This document shows, in pieces, positions 12,088 through 25,760 of a stretch of DNA of 64,000 nucleotides (the stretch's first letter is position 1; the number at the start of each line of letters is the position of its first letter). Under the pieces are notes generated by a model that had not been told where the DNA came from, did no database searches, and worked only from the letters and a program-made list of their open reading frames with translations. Position numbers and translations under genes: made by a program. Origin of the DNA: Candidatus Moraniibacteriota bacterium (GTDB taxonomy: Bacteria > Patescibacteriota > Minisyncoccia > Moranbacterales > GWC2-37-73); contig DAOOTD010000002.1 of assembly GCA_035390125.1 (NCBI GenBank), forward strand, positions 169,908 to 233,907. The letters run 5' to 3'.

Positions 12088-12162
12088 TCCGGCGTAGCGC
12101 AACGGTAGCGCAGGGGACTGTTAATCCCTTGGTTGTAGGTTCGAATCCTACCGCCGGAGCCA
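12088..12162 (+). tRNA. tRNA-Asn (anticodon GTT) with encoded CCA
   Basis: Hand-folded. Acceptor TCCGGCG/CGCCGGA, anticodon loop CTGTTAA, T-arm TAGGTTCGAATCCTA, 3' GCCA. Confidence 0.9.
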
Positions 12163-13632
12163 TTCTTTAGTTTTGGCATATTCCATTATGCCATTAAAGG
12201 GAGCTTTTACCTCAAATGAAAGCTTTCCTGCATTTAAAGTAAGGTTCTGAAGTAAGAAACCCAATAGTTGGGTTTTTTCTTGTGGTTCAGAATTTTGGAA
12301 CAATTCTAATGCCCTTTGCGACAAGTCTAATACTTTATTTGCTGTAAGACTGAAGTCTCTATCAGCGGACGAATGTTCCTGAAGTTGTGTATTTAAGTTT
12401 TCTCTTTCTTGTGTGTATTCAATAGCCATTTTGTCATATTCGTCCGCAGTAATACGTCCATCAAGTCTGTCTCTATACATAACCTTTAACCTTGCATCTA
12501 TATTGCCTATTTTTCTTTGAATAGTTGCTTTATTTTTCTCATAATACACTTTTTCAGCATCATGAATAGTTCTTAGCTCATCTTTGAGCCTATCAAGGGC
12601 TTCTGGCTCCAATTTTAAACTCTGAAATAGGTCTTTAGTTTGATCCACTAATTCATCTTCTCTCAACCACTTTATTCCTTTATCAGGACAAGTCCCGTAA
12701 TAATTAGTGCAATGATAGTAAACATGCCCTTTCTGAAGTTCTGGCGTAATTGCTAATCCGCAATGTGAACATTTTATCAATCCTCTGAAAATATATGGAT
12801 TGTTTGTTCGTTTGAAATTTTGCCTATTATAGCCGTTTATAACTTCTTGGACTTTTTCAAATAAATATCTTGAAACGATAGGTTGATATTTATGCGGATA
12901 TAGCTTACCCTTAACTCTCATTACGCCGTAATAGAACGGGTTTCTTAAAATTGCATGAACTTGGCTTGTTGTCATCTTCATTCCGCTCCTACTTCTCAAG
13001 CCTCTGTCGTTCATTTCCTGTGCAAGCTTTTTCATTGAAAATTTACCCGTGGCATACAACTGAAACATTTTTAGGACTAGAAATTCTTTGTCCTTGTCTA
13101 TGATAATATGCTTTTTTTCATTTTCCAGTGTTATATTTTTATATCCCAGATAGGCTTGTCCAATCCATTCGCCATTCCTTAATTTCTGCTCGTAAGCTCT
13201 TTTTACATTGTCGCTAATTGCATCAGAATAATATTTCGCCAGACCTAAATTTATTCCAAAATGAAATTTTTCTGCTGCCGATATATTTGAAGAGATAACA
13301 AGGTTGTCTGAAACAAAATGTAATTCTATTTTATCTTGCATTGCTAAATCATATAAAAGTGGAACGCGTTTATCAAAAACATTTCGCGTAAATCTATCTA
13401 CTTTGTCAAAACAGACTACAATTTTATCTTTGCTTTTCTTTACTAAATCAATTGCCTTATCAAATTCGTCTCTTTTTTGTTTATAGGCACTTTCATCAAA
13501 GCTAAAGATTTCTAAAACTGCAAAACCTTTTGTTTTGCAGTATTCTTTAAGCCTATGAATTTGAGCTGGTAGAGAGTTTCCGGCGTCTTTTTGTTCTTCT
13601 GTTGAAACTCTAGCTAATATTATCGCTTTCAT
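12148..13632 (-). CDS. large serine recombinase (resolvase/invertase-type N-terminal domain + recombinase domain + Zn ribbon); start at MKAIIL (track ORF extends to 13677)
   Basis: ILARVSTEEQ...GNSLPAQ catalytic Ser region, and a Cys cluster CSHCG...CTNYYGTC. Confidence 0.8.
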   Translation of the reverse strand: MKAIILARVSTEEQKDAGNSLPAQIHRLKEYCKTKGFAVLEIFSFDESAYKQKRDEFDKAIDLVKKSKDKIVVCFDKVDRFTRNVFDKRVPLLYDLAMQDKIELHFVSDNLVISSNISAAEKFHFGINLGLAKYYSDAISDNVKRAYEQKLRNGEWIGQAYLGYKNITLENEKKHIIIDKDKEFLVLKMFQLYATGKFSMKKLAQEMNDRGLRSRSGMKMTTSQVHAILRNPFYYGVMRVKGKLYPHKYQPIVSRYLFEKVQEVINGYNRQNFKRTNNPYIFRGLIKCSHCGLAITPELQKGHVYYHCTNYYGTCPDKGIKWLREDELVDQTKDLFQSLKLEPEALDRLKDELRTIHDAEKVYYEKNKATIQRKIGNIDARLKVMYRDRLDGRITADEYDKMAIEYTQERENLNTQLQEHSSADRDFSLTANKVLDLSQRALELFQNSEPQEKTQLLGFLLQNLTLNAGKLSFEVKAPFNGIMEYAKTKEWLRR

Positions 13633-15320
13633 TTTACGAATGCGTTTTGGACTGTTTGCGAAATTTGCTGATACCAATCTTTTTCATTTTCAGTTTTCAA
13701 CGCAAGATTAGATAGTGAATTAAACAAATTTTTTAAATCATCTGCTTTCGGTTTAATTGCGGAGCTATGGGCGTTTTTTAATAAACATTTGAAGTCCTCT
13801 AAACTTAAAGGTATTATTTGTGATTTTCCGCCATAATATTCTATGTTGATGCGATACAAACCGTAGTAGTGAGCAATGGTAGCATTATTCAAATTAGGAG
13901 CTACAAATATTCCAAATACAGGTTTTGAATTGCTTTTTTTATATTGACCATAGTGTCTTGCTACAGGCTCTCCTTCCATTTCATATTGTTTTTGTCCTGA
14001 TGATAGAGTGACTTCAACAATTGCATCAAAATCTTTATATTTACAAACTATATCGGGTGTGTTGCCTGGAGCTGTATATAATGGCATACCATCGTCATCA
14101 ATTTTAAAGTTTCCTTGAATATCTCCGTCGTTCAACATTGTAAAAGCTCTCCAAATATTCCATTCAAAGAAAAGAGATGGATCTATATTTTCTCTATTTA
14201 CAATACCTGAAAAAACTTCAAGTATATCATTATATTCTTCATAATTTCGTAATTTACTTTTTTCATTTTCAATATATTTTTCAAGACTCTCTTTGATTAG
14301 GCTTTCATAGATATTTTTCAAGTCTTCCGTGTCCTTCTCTTTGAGTGCCGAAACACTAACTCTTGTATCTTTCTGTGTAATTTTAGAAATTATCAAGTCT
14401 TTATTATCTACAAGAAGCAATGGCTTGCTCGCATCAAACAAATTCGCTTCATAATCTTCTTCATCTTTATATGCAAATATATCCCTATCAATATTCTTTA
14501 GAATAAATTCAATATCATTTTTTCTTTCTTTGAGAATGTATACTTTTGATGTTTTTGGATTTAACGAAAACAGTCCGGTAGCACGAAGATACCTAATAGA
14601 GGCATCGGCATAATCAAGATGATTACTTCGTTTAGTTTTAACAAAATTATCTAAAGTTTGTTCCTTACTTTCCCTTATTGATAACTTTCCTTGCTCAATG
14701 TCTTCCTTGAATAATTCAGTCAGCTCTTTCTCAAATTGCAAGGCGATAAATTTTTTATAATTTATCTTTTTTGTTCGCAATAACTTTTTTTCTTCTCTGA
14801 AATTGATAATTTTATTTTTTACATTATTGTATTTAGCAAAATCTGTAAGTTGAATAACAAATAGCCCTATCTCATGCTTGCTTAAACCGTCTAATTCATA
14901 AATAAGTCTCATTAACTCAAGGTAGGGCTTTATTCTAAATGTGTTATTTTTATCTTTATGATAAGGCGAATGAAGCTGGAACTTCAATAGCTGTCTTAAA
15001 AATATCTCTTCCGGTCTGTTTCCATAAACATATTTTTTTCCAGCTTCAGTAAGCTTGATAACTGGCTTTAAGTCAATCAATCCAAGAGATTTAGGAGCTC
15101 TGTTTACTCTATCTCTAGCCTTAAAAGCGACATCTCCAGTTGCTGAACCCTCAAAAAAATCTTGTTTAGCTAGTTGTAAATAAAACTTTTTTTGAGTCTC
15201 TGAATTCCATTTCTGACCTTCAAAATTTTCTGATAAAAATTTTATCTCATCAACCAGTTTGTGTGGTGACCTAGGCGAGGTAACGAAAAATATTGTTTTT
15301 TTATCTGTTATGTGAGCCAT
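13629..15320 (-). CDS. putative type II restriction endonuclease (possibly AlwI-family-like; identity uncertain)
   Basis: 563-aa protein immediately downstream of a DNA methyltransferase in the same operon. C-terminal TPDIV..DAIVEVT..QK resembles a PD-(D/E)xK core. Confidence 0.4.
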   Translation of the reverse strand: MAHITDKKTIFFVTSPRSPHKLVDEIKFLSENFEGQKWNSETQKKFYLQLAKQDFFEGSATGDVAFKARDRVNRAPKSLGLIDLKPVIKLTEAGKKYVYGNRPEEIFLRQLLKFQLHSPYHKDKNNTFRIKPYLELMRLIYELDGLSKHEIGLFVIQLTDFAKYNNVKNKIINFREEKKLLRTKKINYKKFIALQFEKELTELFKEDIEQGKLSIRESKEQTLDNFVKTKRSNHLDYADASIRYLRATGLFSLNPKTSKVYILKERKNDIEFILKNIDRDIFAYKDEEDYEANLFDASKPLLLVDNKDLIISKITQKDTRVSVSALKEKDTEDLKNIYESLIKESLEKYIENEKSKLRNYEEYNDILEVFSGIVNRENIDPSLFFEWNIWRAFTMLNDGDIQGNFKIDDDGMPLYTAPGNTPDIVCKYKDFDAIVEVTLSSGQKQYEMEGEPVARHYGQYKKSNSKPVFGIFVAPNLNNATIAHYYGLYRINIEYYGGKSQIIPLSLEDFKCLLKNAHSSAIKPKADDLKNLFNSLSNLALKTENEKDWYQQISQTVQNAFVK

Positions 15321-15347
15321 AATTATTTTTTTCTTATCGTTTATTAT

Positions 15348-16139
15348 TTACCAAAATATTTTCTCGTTATCTGGAATAGAGGAATTTTTTTGAAGAATAT
15401 CTTTTTTAAATTTAATATATTCTTTAATTCTCTTTTCCGATATTTCAATAGACTTGTTTGAGATATCACAGCCTATAAAATTACAATTATGTTTGATTGA
15501 AGAAATTGCTGCAGAGCCACTGCCTAAAAATGGGTCACAGACAACAAAGTTTGGTGAAGTGCTGGCACTTAACATTATGTCAAATAATTCAACCGGTTTC
15601 TGCGTAGGATACTTTGCTTGATGAACCCTCTTAATTCTCCAAACATCTGGAAATGAGCGGCTCTTTATCTTACGGTTGTTTTTATTTGTTGCAAAAATAA
15701 TAAATTCGTGTCGCCTTCTGAAATAATGTCCCATTCCTAAATTGACCTTATCCCAGGAAATAATATTTTTCACATCAAATAGTTCTCTTACTATTGGACC
15801 AAGCGAAAGAAGGGAGTAGGAATCAAACATTATATATAAATGACCTGAACTTTTCAGTGCTTTTTTGCACAATAGCAAAAAATTTCTATAATTTTCTTCT
15901 GTATCTTTGAATTCCTCAAACCATTTTCCATTTACTGTTCCTTTTTCGGCATATTTTCCAACAATTCTTCCGTTCCCCAAGCTTAAATGATTATTCATTC
16001 CTGAATAAGCTGGATCTGTTACAATAATGTCTATACTTTTTTCTGGCTGACTTTCAAGAAATTTTAATACATCATCGTGAACGATTTTTATTGTATTTTT
16101 TCCTTTATTATATTTGACCTCAAAAGATAATTTTCTCAT
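15348..16139 (-). CDS. beta-class N6-adenine/N4-cytosine DNA methyltransferase (N6_N4_Mtase family); start at MRKLSF (track ORF extends to 16160)
   Basis: Motif IV TDPAY (DPPY-like) at the N-terminus, YPTQKP, and motif I DPFLGSGSAA at the C-terminus; this motif order defines the beta class. Confidence 0.8.
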   Translation of the reverse strand: MRKLSFEVKYNKGKNTIKIVHDDVLKFLESQPEKSIDIIVTDPAYSGMNNHLSLGNGRIVGKYAEKGTVNGKWFEEFKDTEENYRNFLLLCKKALKSSGHLYIMFDSYSLLSLGPIVRELFDVKNIISWDKVNLGMGHYFRRRHEFIIFATNKNNRKIKSRSFPDVWRIKRVHQAKYPTQKPVELFDIMLSASTSPNFVVCDPFLGSGSAAISSIKHNCNFIGCDISNKSIEISEKRIKEYIKFKKDILQKNSSIPDNEKIFW

Positions 16140-16143
16140 AGAT

Positions 16144-16320
16144 TTATTTTGTTGATGCATTTTCTACAAAACTTTGAAACTCGTTCTTTTTAATACGAAA
16201 CTCTTTACCGAATTTATAAGCTTTAATTTTTCCAGCTTTAATGTAGCGATAAATAGTCATTATATTTACCCTTAAAATATCAGCTAATTCTTGAGCTGTG
16301 TAAAATTCTTTTTCTTGCAT
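16144..16320 (-). CDS. excisionase-family (HTH_17/MerR-like) DNA-binding protein, 58 aa; not in the ORF track because it is under 60 aa
   Basis: Hand translation gives MQEKEFYTAQELADILRVNIMTIYRYIKAGKIKAYKFGKEFRIKKNEFQSFVENASTK, which matches the HTH_17 consensus (sELAeiLgVsrrTIYRwikaGklpayKiGr.wRI). Its stop lies 4 nt before the methyltransferase ATG. Confidence 0.6.
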   Translation of the reverse strand: MQEKEFYTAQELADILRVNIMTIYRYIKAGKIKAYKFGKEFRIKKNEFQSFVENASTK

Positions 16321-16357
16321 ATGTTTATTTTTTAATTATAAGATACTTTACTTTTCT

Positions 16358-16558
16358 TTACAAGAAACAGTCCTTACGATCATTGCAACCACCACACGCA
16401 TCGCAATAATCATACTTTCCTATTACAGTAATCTCGTCCTCCAAGCCTCTTTTCTTTAGCTCCTTTCTTATTTCTTCAGCAGTTCGTCCTTGAAAAATTT
16501 CATCAAGCAACTCATCAGTGAGTTCAACTTTTTTCTTTTTTAAATTTTTTTTACTCAT
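16358..16558 (-). CDS. small CxxC-motif protein (YCDACGGCNDRKDC)
   Basis: 66-aa ORF between the Rep-like gene and the HTH gene, with a C-terminal 4-Cys cluster. Confidence 0.35.
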   Translation of the reverse strand: MSKKNLKKKKVELTDELLDEIFQGRTAEEIRKELKKRGLEDEITVIGKYDYCDACGGCNDRKDCFL

Positions 16559-16576
16559 TTATTTAGAATTAAATAA

Positions 16577-17722
16577 TTAACTCGTAATTTGCTCTTTCTT
16601 AAAGACATCAAATTTTTTTAATCCTTCTTCAATATCCTTCAAATAAAGCTCTGGCGACAATGCGTTTGTATTTAATGCTATTGCATTTAATTCTTTCAAG
16701 TGCTTGTTTACATTATTCCAAGAGCCTTTTCCGAATTTGTCCTCTATAATCTGACGAAACAATTCTGCACCCTCGCTCTTGCAAAAATCTTTGATAGCAT
16801 ACAGAGCTACTGCTTTTGTAGGTCTTCCATTTTGATTTGCGATATAATCAGAAATTTCCATAAGCTCATCTTTCTTGCTTTTGTTTTGCTGAAAGAGATG
16901 CAGGTTTCTTTCTTGGACAAGCGTATTCCAATAATCAAGCAAAACTTTTTGGCAAACATCTTTTTTAAAAATATCTCTGAAGTTTGGATTTTTGCCAAAT
17001 CCTATTTTTTCCAAAACCGTGTCCATTTTTCTTTTTTGCGAAAGCCTAACCTCCATTTTAAGAATTTCAATGTCAGTCTTTCTTCGCCACTCGTTTATCT
17101 GACAAAACAAACTTTTTTGATTTCCTTTCATATCGTGGTCAATTGACCTTTTTTCGTCTTTTCCCATATCGGCGATTTTATCGTAGAAAACTAGGGAGTG
17201 AGATTTTGAATAATACTGAAGTGAATGACCGCCGTTGCGAAAATCCGTCTTTGTCAGATCCAACCTCTTTGTTAGCTGTATTTTGGAAAGCTCTTTGATT
17301 GCCATTGTAGCTGTTATGTAGCCGTTTAACTCAATGTTTTTTGAGGCGTGAAATCCGGACACAGTAGCTTCCGCTAAATTATCTCGCATAATATAGACAC
17401 CTTTTTTGATTAGTTTTTCCTGTAATTTGAGGATAACTTCTTCAAAATCACTTTCTTTAATTTCGTCTAGATTATTCTGAAATAGTAACTTTGGAACTGA
17501 AAATTCAACTCTTAAACCGATATTTATTCCCATTCTTGAAGGTCGTCTATAGAGTGTCATTCTTGGATAATATTCCCATTTTGATTCTTCCTTTGAAGGA
17601 TTGTTAACGGCTTTGCCATATCCGGCATCAGATAAAAAGTCTTTCGCGTTAGGAAAAAACATTTCTGGCGTCCAAATATCAAACTTATCAAGTGGAAAAT
17701 TCAAGATTACTGTGTCTAGCAT
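16577..17722 (-). CDS. putative rolling-circle replication initiation protein (gpII/Phage_CRI or Rep_trans-like)
   Basis: N-terminus MLDTVILNFPLDKFDIW resembles the MIDxLVLRLPF start of filamentous-phage gpII-type Rep proteins. Context is a mobile element. Confidence 0.35.
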   Translation of the reverse strand: MLDTVILNFPLDKFDIWTPEMFFPNAKDFLSDAGYGKAVNNPSKEESKWEYYPRMTLYRRPSRMGINIGLRVEFSVPKLLFQNNLDEIKESDFEEVILKLQEKLIKKGVYIMRDNLAEATVSGFHASKNIELNGYITATMAIKELSKIQLTKRLDLTKTDFRNGGHSLQYYSKSHSLVFYDKIADMGKDEKRSIDHDMKGNQKSLFCQINEWRRKTDIEILKMEVRLSQKRKMDTVLEKIGFGKNPNFRDIFKKDVCQKVLLDYWNTLVQERNLHLFQQNKSKKDELMEISDYIANQNGRPTKAVALYAIKDFCKSEGAELFRQIIEDKFGKGSWNNVNKHLKELNAIALNTNALSPELYLKDIEEGLKKFDVFKKEQITS

Positions 17723-17907
17723 AATTTTGCGTTATTTTCATTATTCGTCTTATTTGAGCTATTTTCCTTTTGTTGTTCATTTATTCGTTTGTCAATTCTA
17801 AAAAGCAAGTCAAAAAATCCCACAAAATTGTGCTTTGCTTCAAATACTTCCTTGTTAGAAAGCGTCTTTTTGCTTAATTTCTCATAGAATTCCTTGTCAG
17901 ATAACAT
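17716..17907 (-). CDS. small hypothetical protein, first gene of the island operon
   Basis: 63-aa ORF overlapping the Rep start by 7 nt. Confidence 0.25.
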   Translation of the reverse strand: MLSDKEFYEKLSKKTLSNKEVFEAKHNFVGFFDLLFRIDKRINEQQKENSSNKTNNENNAKLC

Positions 17908-17910
17908 AAA

Positions 17911-17932
17911 ACCAGCAACTTTAAATTGCTGG
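17911..17932. promoter_or_regulatory. 7-bp perfect inverted repeat CCAGCAA-N7-TTGCTGG just upstream of the island operon (operator or candidate nick/origin hairpin)
   Basis: Seen directly in sequence at 17912-17918 and 17926-17932. Confidence 0.3.
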
Positions 17933-18222
17933 CTTCTGAAGACAAAAAAAGAGACAACAGAGGCTAATCAACTTAAAGTTGAATGCTTTGTTATCTCAAA
18001 GGCTGTATGCAGGTTAAGATTGCTGTAGTGCCCTAGGGCGACTTATAGTATTAACGTTCCAAGTCTTATATTGAGCTAAATCAAAACTTTATTAACTTTT
18101 TAAGGCTTATATATACAATATCATACAAAAATAGACTTTGTCAAGGTGTAGTTATTTTGTTATAAATTTAATTTTTAAGCCAAAAAATGGCTTAAATAAG
18201 CTGTCGCGCAGCTGAACATTCA

Positions 18223-18438
18223 TTACTTTTTCTTACTTTCAGTAATTTTCTTTAGAAATTTTTTTCTTTCGCTTTTGTTTAAAAAAACGCTTTCAAAGAA
18301 GTATTGCATTTGAACTAAATTATAGTCTAAATTTACACTTTTCAGCTCTTTGTTGATGCTTTTAACTACGAATTTTTCCAGCTTGGCGTTCTCTCTTCTC
18401 TGAATTCTTGGCAGTAATAGTTTCTTCGTAAACCTCAT
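18223..18438 (-). CDS. hypothetical small basic protein
   Basis: 71-aa ORF, Lys/Arg-rich. Confidence 0.25.
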   Translation of the reverse strand: MRFTKKLLLPRIQRRENAKLEKFVVKSINKELKSVNLDYNLVQMQYFFESVFLNKSERKKFLKKITESKKK

Positions 18439-20003: not shown

Positions 20004-20045
20004 ACCCGCCGGCAGAAAATCTGCTTTGGTGGGTTTTCTGTTTTT
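20004..20045 (+). terminator. hairpin + T-run terminator (CCCGCCGGCAG...CTGCTTTGGTGGG TTTTCTGTTTTT)
   Basis: Imperfect GC-rich stem followed by a T-tract. The 3' arm and T-tract are the start of the 52-bp repeat. Confidence 0.45.
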
Positions 20046-20073
20046 ATATCAAACTTAAATTAAATTCTTCCAA
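20022..20073 (+). repeat. copy 1 of a 52-bp direct repeat (TGCTTTGGTGGGTTTTCTGTTTTTATATCAAACTTAAATTAAATTCTTCCAA)
   Basis: 51 of 52 nt identical to 20761-20812. Confidence 0.8.
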
Positions 20074-20178
20074 AATTTTCCAAAACTTTACTCACTTAAA
20101 AGTGCTCAATTTTTAGTATGGGCATCATATTTTAATGGCTTATTTAAGCCTTTTTTTATTTAATTTATTAATTGCTTG

Positions 20179-20742: not shown

Positions 20743-20785
20743 CCCACCAGCAAGGAAACTTGCTTTGGTGGGTTTTCTGTTTTTA
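20743..20785 (+). terminator. rho-independent terminator (CCCACCAGCAAG-GAAA-CTTGCTTTGGTGGG followed by TTTTCTGTTTTT)
   Basis: 12-bp stem and T-run; overlaps repeat copy 2. Confidence 0.6.
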
Positions 20786-20812
20786 TATCCAACTTAAATT
20801 AAATTCTTCCAA
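20761..20812 (+). repeat. copy 2 of the 52-bp direct repeat
   Basis: 51 of 52 nt identical to 20022-20073. Confidence 0.8.
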
Positions 20813-20954
20813 TAATTCACCAAATTATCTATAATTAAAAGTTATAATTTTTTTACTAAATTGAACCAAATAAAACACACTTTTTATGGGGTTATTTTTT
20901 ATACCAGAGTAGGATGATAGAATTTATGTTATAATAAACCTAGTAATAATTTTT

Positions 20955-25019: not shown

Positions 25020-25760
25020 TTATCTTAGGCCAAAACGTAATCTGATGACTTTTTCTTCACTAGCTTTCAATGTAGTCAAAACCTTATGAATTTGATCAGC
25101 CATATCTTTGTCTTGCACTGTCTCTTCGGAAGAAATATTTTTAGAGTCTGGTATAACGCAATCGATCGTCGAGTCATCATCTTCGTTGACTAGTTTAGAA
25201 AAGGAGAATGTTTTTCCTCTTTTCCTTATAACCTGTACTTCAGAGATTTTCTCCTTAGTAAGGCCCAAACACTCTGCCAGCTCTTCATGAGTTGGTAACC
25301 GCTTGTAATTCTGCAAAAAATTCTTCTCAGTTTTTTCAATTTCTATTATTGCCCTCCTTAATTGGCGCGAAACAGAAATATTATCTGATTGATAAGCCAA
25401 CTCAACGTCTATCCTGGTCTTGATGTAAAACCCGGCCCATCTTGCAAACCCGCAACCGCAATCAGACTTAAATGTTTTAACAGCCAAGATTAATCCGATA
25501 TTTGCCGTTTGGATTAAATCTTCAATTGCTAATCCACTATTCCAATTTTTTCTGGCGAAAAAAATGGCAAAAGCCATATTCGATTCGACTATTTTTTTCT
25601 CCATCTCCGTTAATTTTTTCTTTTCTTCGCCTTCATTTCTTTGTTCGCATATTTTTTCCAGGAGCTCGCTCTCTTCTGTTCTAGATAATCGTGGGCATTT
25701 TTGTGCTTGTTTTATGAGAAAACGCAAGCAAGCCGTTTCTTCATTTTGATTTTTTGCCAT
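25020..25760 (-). CDS. sigma-70 family protein truncated just before the region 4.2 HTH (possible pseudogene or decoy)
   Basis: Region 2 and 3-like motifs (DLIQTANIGLILAVKTF). The protein ends at ...VIRLRFGLR, where sigma factors normally continue with the -35-binding HTH. Confidence 0.5.
   Translation of the reverse strand: MAKNQNEETACLRFLIKQAQKCPRLSRTEESELLEKICEQRNEGEEKKKLTEMEKKIVESNMAFAIFFARKNWNSGLAIEDLIQTANIGLILAVKTFKSDCGCGFARWAGFYIKTRIDVELAYQSDNISVSRQLRRAIIEIEKTEKNFLQNYKRLPTHEELAECLGLTKEKISEVQVIRKRGKTFSFSKLVNEDDDSTIDCVIPDSKNISSEETVQDKDMADQIHKVLTTLKASEEKVIRLRFGLR

Follow-up and report, generated by a model that had tools for sequence, protein, structure and literature searches.

Why should a recombinase gene begin within the last codons of a restriction endonuclease gene? 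The question is raised by the window analyzed here, a 64,000-nt stretch of DNA from a Candidatus Moraniibacteriota bacterium, in which four consecutive genes occupy the minus strand between 12148 and 16320. In order of reading these encode a small helix-turn-helix (HTH) protein, a DNA methyltransferase, a 563-aa protein, and a large serine recombinase (LSR). The original prediction for this DNA described a restriction-modification (RM) module co-translated with the recombinase and headed by the HTH gene, whose product would act either like the C-proteins that control RM operons or as a recombination directionality factor. Comparison with related loci places the four genes in a larger unit. They probably belong to a small mobile element integrated at the 3′ end of a tRNA-Asn gene, in which the RM genes are swappable cargo and which would work by the mechanism proposed below.

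A Seven-Gene Array Ending Inside a tRNA Gene

Direct reading of the sequence and the open reading frame (ORF) listing bear out the gene order, coordinates, spacers, and overlap first described. The 58-aa HTH gene (16144-16320) is followed after 4 nt by the 263-aa methyltransferase gene (15348-16139, with its ATG at 16139) and, after a further 27 nt, by the gene of the 563-aa protein (13629-15320), which shares the four nucleotides ATGA at 13629-13632 with the 494-aa LSR gene (12148-13632). An alternative methyltransferase ATG at 16160 would overlap the HTH gene, and the start at 16139 is favored by a 263-aa homologue in the related locus L083. The HTH gene is not at the head of the operon, as had been claimed. 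Three genes continue upstream of it on the same strand, namely p66 (16358-16558), a 381-aa gene (16577-17722), and p63 (17716-17907), with spacers of 37 nt and 18 nt and a 7-nt overlap. The four genes first described make up the 3′ half of an array of seven genes on one strand.

At its other end, the array runs into its likely integration target. A tRNA-Asn(GTT) gene, called by ARAGORN and matching the Rfam tRNA model at 72.7 bits, occupies 12088-12162 of the plus strand. The LSR stop codon (12148-12150) lies 15 nt inside it on the opposite strand, and the final 15 nt of the tRNA gene, read on the other strand, are the last five codons of the recombinase, stop included. The element neighbors dnaG-rpoD, and the flank order dnaG-rpoD-tRNA-Asn recurs in related genomes of the Candidate Phyla Radiation (CPR), where this tRNA likewise has an LSR beside it. 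Identical proteins are found on a JGI contig and a few others, which NCBI names Candidatus Moranbacteria.

The LSR Family at tRNA 3′ Ends

The product of 12148-13632 is, by its domains and conserved residues, a large serine recombinase. It matches the Pfam families Resolvase (PF00239, E 8.8e-21), Recombinase (PF07508, E 4.3e-17), and Zn_ribbon_recom (PF13408, E 1.8e-7) and holds all residues that are invariant in 33 homologues, including R8, S10, D79, R80, and R83. Its similarity to the CcrA/B and XisF models is partial, with the Ccr model reaching 94 bits against a cut-off of 900. Such an enzyme would perform attP × attB recombination at short sites with a dinucleotide at their center. At E ≤ 1e-20, the protein has 3333 homologues, mainly in CPR bacteria. 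A genome scan with a profile of the 33 homologues gave 440 confirmed matches, from which 78 loci were fetched and 75 parsed; these related loci are designated by L numbers. Their hosts are Moranbacteria and other Parcubacteria, Levybacteria, Woesebacteria, Dependentiae/Babeliales, and bins labeled otherwise.

Within 400 nt of the LSR stop, 55 of the 75 parsed loci have a tRNA gene called by ARAGORN, always on the opposite strand, and in 54 of the 75 the LSR ORF overlaps the tRNA 3′ end on that strand. The 55 tRNAs are those for Asn (26), Gln (11), Glu (6), Asp (6), Arg (4), His (1), and Lys (1). Past the LSR stop of four further loci (L024, L050, L061, and L083) stand tRNA 3′ halves of the GGATTCGAACC type followed by unrelated sequence, with no tRNA call from ARAGORN. 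Transfer RNA genes with introns have been reported for Patescibacteria (PMC13011429), and the halves probably belong to genes of this sort.

Some loci retain traces of the recombination itself. Two LSR copies stand in tandem in L053 (683-2167 and 10001-11485), 9.3 kb apart and 99.7% identical, which suggests recent activity in the family. The junction after the first copy looks like an intact attP and is identical to the tRNA-side junction up to a point 6 nt into the tRNA. The elements of L067 and L084 retain, at their far side, what is left of an LSR 3′ end. Crossover would thus most plausibly take place at the extreme 3′ end of the tRNA gene, which would account for the lack of a displaced tRNA fragment in the window: no copy of the tRNA-Asn 3′ end was found there at up to 3 mismatches over 25 nt, and local alignment gave nothing convincing. 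The window holds no remnants of a second recombinase, and a repeat search around the locus returned only AT-rich matches at chance level.

A Conserved Backbone with a Variable Cargo Slot

The window proteins were searched against all ORFs of the related loci, with L001-L004, copies of the contig that the window comes from, left out of the counts. Homologues of the 381-aa protein (referred to as Rep, being a probable replication initiator) occur in 50 related loci, of the HTH protein in 31, and of p63 in 25. There are none for p66 or for any gene past 18.2 kb. The genes usually follow the order p63, Rep, HTH, variable genes, LSR, and tRNA. Homology and gene order together show Rep, HTH, and LSR, with p63, to be a conserved backbone across CPR and Dependentiae genomes.

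The variable genes lie in one place. In the 29 loci with an HTH gene upstream of the LSR gene, everything between the two is on the same strand, and in 21 of them Pfam matches identify RM-type cargo, of type I-like, II, IIG, III, or IV. Type III Mod and Res genes fill the slot most often (L010, L023, L029, L049, L053, L062, L074, L077, and L078). Elsewhere it holds an N4/N6 methyltransferase with an MvaI/BcnI enzyme (L020), a C5 methyltransferase with a BsaWI-like enzyme and Vsr (L038) or with EcoRII-C (L054), an HsdR_N-methyltransferase with an S subunit (L024, L061, and L076), MmeI-like fused enzymes (L047 and L079), an Eco57I/TaqI_C methyltransferase with an unknown (L051), an EcoRI methyltransferase with GmrSD/HNH (L084), Mrr (L081), or the same methyltransferase and AlwI pair as in the window (L083). 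Other cargo consists of Fic (L080), an Erm-like rRNA methylase (L041, 3417-4304, and L044, 9109-9996; RrnaAD E 2.7e-49), a pentapeptide protein (L012), and unknowns (L045, L050, and L082). In L019 the slot is empty, and the HTH stop stands 1 nt before the LSR ATG. One locus excepted, the HTH gene and the first cargo gene are separated by -14 to +8 nt, and the last cargo gene and the LSR gene by -4 to +13 nt; on either side, the spacers are mostly no longer than 8 nt. Read across the family, the HTH-LSR stretch is shown by its gene content to be a variable cargo slot, occupied mostly by RM systems. The proposal that the RM pair rides on a recombinase-borne mobile element gains from this comparison, and the recurrent linkage of RM genes to one recombinase family fits a role for them as stabilizing or defense cargo.

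The Restriction-Modification Pair

The 563-aa protein had been presented as a putative endonuclease, and profile and structure searches assign it to a nuclease family rather than to a non-nuclease one. It matches Pfam RE_AlwI (PF09491, E 1.9e-61), an architecture of a FokI-like binding domain and a C-terminal PD-(D/E)XK domain, over profile positions 3-440 of 441, and its residues 3-551 align to residues 6-589 of N.BspD6I (2ewf/5liz, E 4e-51), a structurally solved nickase that is the large subunit of R.BspD6I. The PD...EV segments of the two proteins align; the position of the downstream lysine differs. By homology the endonuclease is a member of the MlyI/PleI/AlwI/BstNBI group of type IIS enzymes. 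No ORF of ~190 aa for a small subunit adjoins its gene, the neighbors being the LSR and methyltransferase genes, and it thus falls outside the heterodimeric BstNBI/BspD6I subtype. Because no small subunit is adjacent, the endonuclease resembles in its gene context the homodimerizing class (class I), or else a lone nickase. At ~30% identity, the protein is too distant for a GAGTC or GGATC specificity to be transferred to it.

Its partner is a beta-class N4/N6 DNA methyltransferase (Pfam N6_N4_Mtase, E 3.1e-26) with a TDPAY motif and partial CcrM-like matches that fall below the NCBIfam cut-offs. The motif DPPY is typical of adenine methyltransferases, and TDPAY is nearer to it. It is a guess that one enzyme acting on a GANTC-like site would be enough for a GAGTC-type endonuclease.

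The same pairing of methyltransferase and endonuclease occurs in L083, L086, L087, and L089. Between the window and L083, the methyltransferases are 69% and the endonucleases 62% identical, against 49% for the LSRs, 42% for Rep, and 35% for p63. By these values, the RM cassette has moved between diverged backbones. In L086-L088, endonuclease homologues (55-67% identity) stand with a methyltransferase in ordinary chromosomal context with neither HTH nor LSR, and in L089 a related methyltransferase and AlwI pair occupies another slot, between a Rep-like gene and an HTH gene. The methyltransferase of the pair in L088 (4550-6040) is fused to an N-terminal LexA DNA-binding domain and an S24 peptidase domain, which suggests SOS-like, self-cleaving control of that RM system.

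The ATGA Overlap and the Expression of the Array

The feature that raised the question turns out to be common in the family. A 4-nt ATGA overlap is the most frequent overlap between same-strand genes in prokaryotes. The LSR start could be placed in 67 related loci, and nearly all of these genes begin with ATGAA(A/G), so that a TGA is built into the start. The same -4 overlap is present in 18 of the 67 with very different upstream genes (Res, S subunit, EcoRII-C, Mrr, Vsr, pentapeptide, MerR/HTH_17, and unknowns of 61-194 aa), and in 16 more the distance is -1 to +5 nt. The loci of the Dependentiae branch mostly have longer spacers before the LSR gene. The overlap in the window is therefore, as far as sequence comparison tells, a family trait and not specific to the link with RM genes. 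That the recombinase is translated through reinitiation, at the far end of a long message, is plausible and fits the overlap.

A scan of the minus strand from 16281 to 12148 found no terminator-like sites. Two promoter-like sites lie upstream of genes of the array. One, at 18144-18115, lies upstream of p63 and is conserved in L008, L014, and L015. The other, TTGTAA-17-TATAAT at 16363-16335 on the minus strand (10/12 matches in a consensus scan), lies upstream of the HTH gene and is not conserved where the relatives' Rep and HTH genes overlap.

Backbone Proteins and the Leader

The 381-aa window protein has no family match of its own in Pfam, PHROG, or NCBIfam. Among its homologues, matches are weak: 8 of 40 match PF05144 (Phage_CRI, the G2P N-terminal family; best E 2.5e-5) and 4 of 40 match PF02486 (Rep_trans). 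Its AlphaFold model (pLDDT 90) matches Inoviridae G2P proteins in BFVD at E 3e-5 to 9e-8 with TM 0.3-0.5, one of these matches being at E 3.2e-5 and TM ~0.36, and has no match in the PDB. A tyrosine, Y180, in the context Y-D-K is invariant in the 40 homologues. These data point, with moderate confidence, to a divergent rolling-circle initiator of the G2P/Rep_trans kind. The protein has no match in phage or plasmid collections and one truncated match in IMG/VR, so the element is not a recognizable virus or plasmid. An inovirus prophage was considered separately and ruled out, as the seven genes include no Zot-like ATPase or coat-like membrane proteins.

The small protein p63 also marks the smallest relatives. 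In the minimal elements L008 and L013-L015, the 230-270 nt between its gene and the downstream LSR gene contain a short ORF only. The other small protein, p66, is rich in lysine and in cysteine, with a C-terminal CxxCxxC...C cluster; it stands between Rep and HTH in the window element only and has no homologue in the 78 loci and no match in the family libraries.

Upstream of p63 is a conserved leader (17908-18144) that includes the promoter-like site at 18144-18115, nested stems (GAGATAAC...GTTATCTC; fold z-score -2.2), and a perfect palindrome, CCAGCAATTTAAAGTTGCTGG, with a T-run (17936-17908) that abuts the p63 ATG. Within this palindrome, L008 carries a two-sided change. An Rfam scan of the element returned the tRNA only, leaving the leader with no Rfam family. 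Possible roles for the leader are those of operator, attenuator, or rolling-circle origin; to place such an origin in the palindrome at 17908-17936 is speculation.

Candidate Boundaries of the Element

The candidate core of crossover at the recombinase-proximal junction is AGCCA at 12158-12162, the 3′ terminus of the tRNA gene. A candidate for the far junction comes from the region upstream of p63, which aligns with L008, L013, L014, and L015. On the distal side of that region, the motif AAAATGGCTTA stands at the equivalent place in L013, L014, and L015, and its window counterpart, TTTTTGGCTTA, runs downward from 18182 within a hairpin (18196-18174). The TGGCT found there is the reverse complement of the tRNA-terminal AGCCA and yields a 5-bp direct repeat, 12158-12162 and 18178-18182. 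The candidate element accordingly extends from 12158 to 18182, ~6.0 kb, with an approximate far end. Its predicted excision products follow from these positions. At the candidate empty site, the tRNA 3′ end (...CCGCCGGAGCCA) would be joined to 18183 onward (AAAAATGGCTTAAATAAG...), and at the candidate circle junction, 18182 downward (...AATTTTTAAGCCA) would be joined to 12163 upward (TTCTTTAGTTTTGGC...).

Joining the far arm to the LSR 3′ end provides an in-frame stop after 2-3 codons in 4/4 elements, where the recombinase would end in EWLKN*, WLT*, WLI*, or WLM*. In the integrated form, whose ORF ends inside the tRNA gene, the last residues of the recombinase are host-encoded. If the candidate junction is right, the window protein, with its integrated ending EWLRR, would end in EWLKN when excised.

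Just beyond the candidate boundary is a 71-aa ORF (18223-18438, minus strand) with 79% nucleotide identity to 6683-6834 of L013, a segment that likewise lies outside the L013 element. It could be left over from another element or be a frequent neighbor of that tRNA. Two other features were observed farther out in the window: a 101-nt direct repeat of 80% identity (20014-20114 and 20753-20853), intergenic and located before two small uncharacterized genes, and a second, short sigma-70-like gene (25020-25760, minus strand) with regions 2 and 3 only, ~13 kb from rpoD.

Proposed Mechanism and Evidence for Mobility

The proposed mechanism joins these parts into one cycle. The recombinase would integrate a circular form by attP × attB recombination within the tRNA-terminal AGCCA. 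The small basic HTH protein would act with it as a directionality factor, as a repressor of the element promoter, or as both, and Rep would replicate or mobilize the excised circle. One or two polycistronic messages would be made from the candidate promoters upstream of p63 and of the HTH gene. Having no spacer of its own, the recombinase gene would be translated by termination-reinitiation at ATGA, and because of this the amount of recombinase would be low and tied to cargo expression. The RM pair, with the methyltransferase gene before the endonuclease gene, would guard the host against foreign DNA and penalize loss of the element. We infer the mobility of the element, the exact place of its far boundary, and the transcription and coupling of its genes.

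Several observations weigh against this scheme. Support for the far boundary consists of a repeat of 5 nt and one short conserved motif, and its position could be off by ~100 nt, as homology in L014 and L015 extends 76 nt beyond it; the arms beside the candidate core lack clear dyad symmetry, judged by eye. Rep is assigned through weak matches in a minority of homologues and a single class of structural hit at TM 0.3-0.5. The methyltransferase and LSR genes also contain promoter-like sites, and the total found, 33, is no higher than the shuffled expectation of 26 ± 5, so that the genes may be transcribed separately. No array gene is preceded by a Shine-Dalgarno-like sequence, which makes its absence before the LSR gene uninformative. 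The tight spacing may reflect the compaction of CPR genomes. Neither candidate recognition site is avoided in the 64-kb window (observed/expected 1.17 for GAGTC and 1.18 for GGATC), and RM activity here is predicted from sequence. Finally, contigs with identical RpoD either have the element or end inside the tRNA, with no empty site and no excised circle among them. Two metagenome scans gave 0 matches for the empty site or its flank and are uninformative, as the window's own flank was also not returned.

Those last observations are what would be expected if the element were a fixed island that no longer moves, an old integration that has become a chromosomal RM locus and whose overlaps and short spacers are by-products of streamlining with no regulatory meaning. 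The element stands at the same place in all 12-14 contigs of this organism, and the GC content equals that of the host. Genes are tightly packed in CPR genomes, and overlaps of 4 nt are common among prokaryotes. Against this, all seven ORFs are intact, the recombinase keeps the residues invariant in its 33 homologues, and the family shows signs of activity in the tandem copy of L053 and the LSR remnants of L067 and L084. Cargo differs between closely related backbones, and in ~25 loci cassettes of widely differing content have spacers of zero or close to zero on either side, a pattern that suggests selection to keep the operon continuous. A fixed island is accordingly quite unlikely.

The mobile-element reading can also be carried further. 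The family could be an LSR-based counterpart of the integron, a platform for defense cassettes in ultra-small bacteria, in which unrelated RM systems are exchanged in one slot whose two junctions are cut down to a few nucleotides, the integrase is made only by reinitiation after the cargo, excision and integration are tied quantitatively to cargo expression, and the integrase gene spans its own attachment core, its last residues switching between the integrated and the excised form. This stronger form is tentative and rather unlikely. Archaeal integrase genes of the SSV type are split by integration, and an integrase spanning its own core would resemble that arrangement.

The HTH Protein and the Control of the Cargo

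The HTH protein matches Pfam HTH_17 (E 4.8e-14), scores 51.4 bits against the TIGR01764 cut-off of 28.8, and falls into PHROG excisionase families; it is lysine-rich. HTH proteins beside cargo of other kinds resemble it as closely as does the one beside the same RM pair. Identity to the window protein is 74% in L012 (pentapeptide), 73% in L020 (MvaI-type), and 71% in L079 (MmeI-like), compared with 68% in L019, which has no cargo, and 66% in L083, which has the same RM pair. Pairs of loci that share their cargo average 0.55 in HTH identity and pairs that differ in it 0.53, and HTH identity follows LSR identity with a Spearman coefficient of 0.51. The HTH gene is immediately upstream of the LSR gene in L019, L072, and L089, and the L072 gene, for a MerR/HTH_17 protein, extends into the LSR start. 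Because the HTH protein tracks the recombinase and not the RM type, it is therefore, on these comparisons, a partner of the recombinase or backbone and not a C-protein of the window RM system.

The opposite assignment, to a C-protein-like controller, was one of two options in the original prediction; in its full form it would make the locus a C-protein-controlled RM operon that stands beside a recombinase by chance, with the HTH protein delaying the endonuclease on entry into a new host. The layout lends itself to this, with the HTH gene 4 nt upstream of the methyltransferase gene, the methyltransferase before the endonuclease, and a promoter-like site directly upstream of the HTH gene. The HTH protein, methyltransferase, and endonuclease are also 62-69% identical to those of L083, above the values for LSR or Rep, and the HTH protein weakly matches, below the cut-off, the MAD1 HTH from a methylation-associated defense system. 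C-proteins are, however, of the XRE type, and the window protein belongs to the excisionase family (HTH_17, TIGR01764). The same HTH family accompanies unrelated RM types, Fic, Erm-like, and pentapeptide cargo, and no cargo at all in L019; its similarity is independent of cargo type. The RM pair lies upstream of the HTH gene in L089, and the methyltransferase and AlwI pair does without an HTH in L086-L088. The claim of C-protein-like control thus fits the family poorly, and this reading of the locus is very improbable. A C gene would have a palindromic C-box operator upstream; no palindrome is visible in the 37-nt spacer (16321-16357), with no formal search for such a motif made across relatives.

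Small basic Xis-like factors direct the serine integrases of phiRv1 and TP901-1 (PMC1470463), and by this analogy a role for the HTH protein as a recombination directionality factor is plausible. Such a factor would favor attL × attR recombination and inhibit the attP × attB reaction. A role as repressor of the element is equally open. Any autoregulation by the HTH protein would also set RM expression, because its gene heads the methyltransferase and endonuclease genes.

That the recombinase is an invertase or resolvase that switches the RM genes for phase variation, as serine recombinases do elsewhere in hsdS invertons (PMC7672463), is hardly credible for a 494-aa LSR with Recombinase and zinc-ribbon domains, which is not a small invertase and whose family is tied to tRNA 3′ ends, beside a type II pair with no specificity subunit and with no inverted repeats flanking or within the RM genes beyond chance-level AT-rich matches.

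Significance and Comparison with Known Systems

RM genes on integrative elements, read as stabilizing cargo, are well known (PMC5704250, PMC3874152). The window instance alone is ordinary RM cargo on a mobile element, and the interest lies in the family-level pattern. Mobile elements of CPR/Patescibacteria and Dependentiae are poorly described, and surveys name islands and RM systems but not their vehicles; one such study reports genomic islands and RM systems in these organisms with no mention of recombinases or tRNA targets (PMC12455944). The full-text literature gave no description of this element family in Patescibacteria, with incomplete coverage and a prior description possible. If the mobile-element reading is true, one compact backbone of Rep, Xis-like HTH, and LSR spreads all RM types among organisms supposed to be poor in defense. 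It would also supply a rule for finding cargo, which is to look between an HTH_17 gene and a tRNA-adjoining LSR gene. Dozens of natural LSR/att pairs with tRNA-end targets, together with candidate small directionality factors, could be of use in genome engineering.

The RM cargo has its own known relatives. The MlyI/PleI/AlwI and BstNBI/BspD6I type IIS systems (PMC3017599) share with the window a full-length N.BspD6I homologue and a small beta-class methyltransferase, and the window differs from BstNBI/BspD6I in having no adjacent small catalytic subunit. C-protein type II RM operons (PMC3874152) likewise have a small HTH gene directly upstream of RM genes on the same strand, whereas the window HTH is of another family, has no specificity for RM type, and co-varies with the recombinase.

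Among mobile elements, two named kinds were tried as identities and rejected. An integron has a tyrosine IntI, attI, and promoterless cassettes flanked by attC; the recombinase here is of the serine type, and no repeat family flanks the cargo. A tycheposon, a kind defined by its lineage-specific tyrosine recombinase, partial-tRNA repeats, and common hallmark genes, was set aside since the recombinase is an LSR and the window has no partial copy of tRNA-Asn. The tycheposons of Prochlorococcus are nevertheless alike in targeting tRNA genes in streamlined genomes, in having the integrase at one end, variable cargo, and a small module for replication that is optional, and in the tandem or degenerate copies that pile up at the same tRNA (bioRxiv 10.1101/2020.12.28.424599). 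They are 10-20 kb long, carry a lineage-specific tyrosine recombinase in 910/937 cases, and have partial-tRNA repeats, primase/helicase modules, and cargo that is mostly for nutrient acquisition or PICI-like (bioRxiv 10.1101/2020.12.28.424599). The window element, in contrast, has an LSR, no partial tRNA copy, and a G2P-like initiator, and the cargo of its family is mostly RM.

Staphylococcal cassette chromosome (SCC) elements, with their Ccr large serine recombinases, are similar in being chromosomal cassettes that an LSR mobilizes and whose cargo can be exchanged; RM genes are present in some of them. They differ in inserting in rlmH (orfX), being much larger, and having no tRNA target and no cargo in the recombinase operon.

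The integrative and mobilizable elements (IMEs) of Firmicutes that encode a serine recombinase, a Rep_trans-type initiator, or both, in some cases with type II RM for maintenance, are likewise small integrated elements with a serine recombinase at one end, very short junction repeats, a rolling-circle-type (Rep_trans) initiator, and RM or toxin-antitoxin cargo that is read as stabilizing (PMC5704250). Serine-recombinase IMEs typically insert in and disrupt dispensable genes and lack a proposed directionality factor (PMC5704250). Unlike these, the window element lies at the extreme 3′ end of a tRNA gene, leaves the tRNA intact, and has an LSR ORF that ends inside it; it also has an excisionase-family backbone gene and holds its cargo in one slot within the operon. 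The hosts differ as well, being CPR bacteria and Dependentiae, which are not known to have conjugation machinery. The element is set apart from its closest kinds by the tRNA-end target, the excisionase-family gene, the G2P-like initiator, the cargo slot with near-zero spacers, and the host range.

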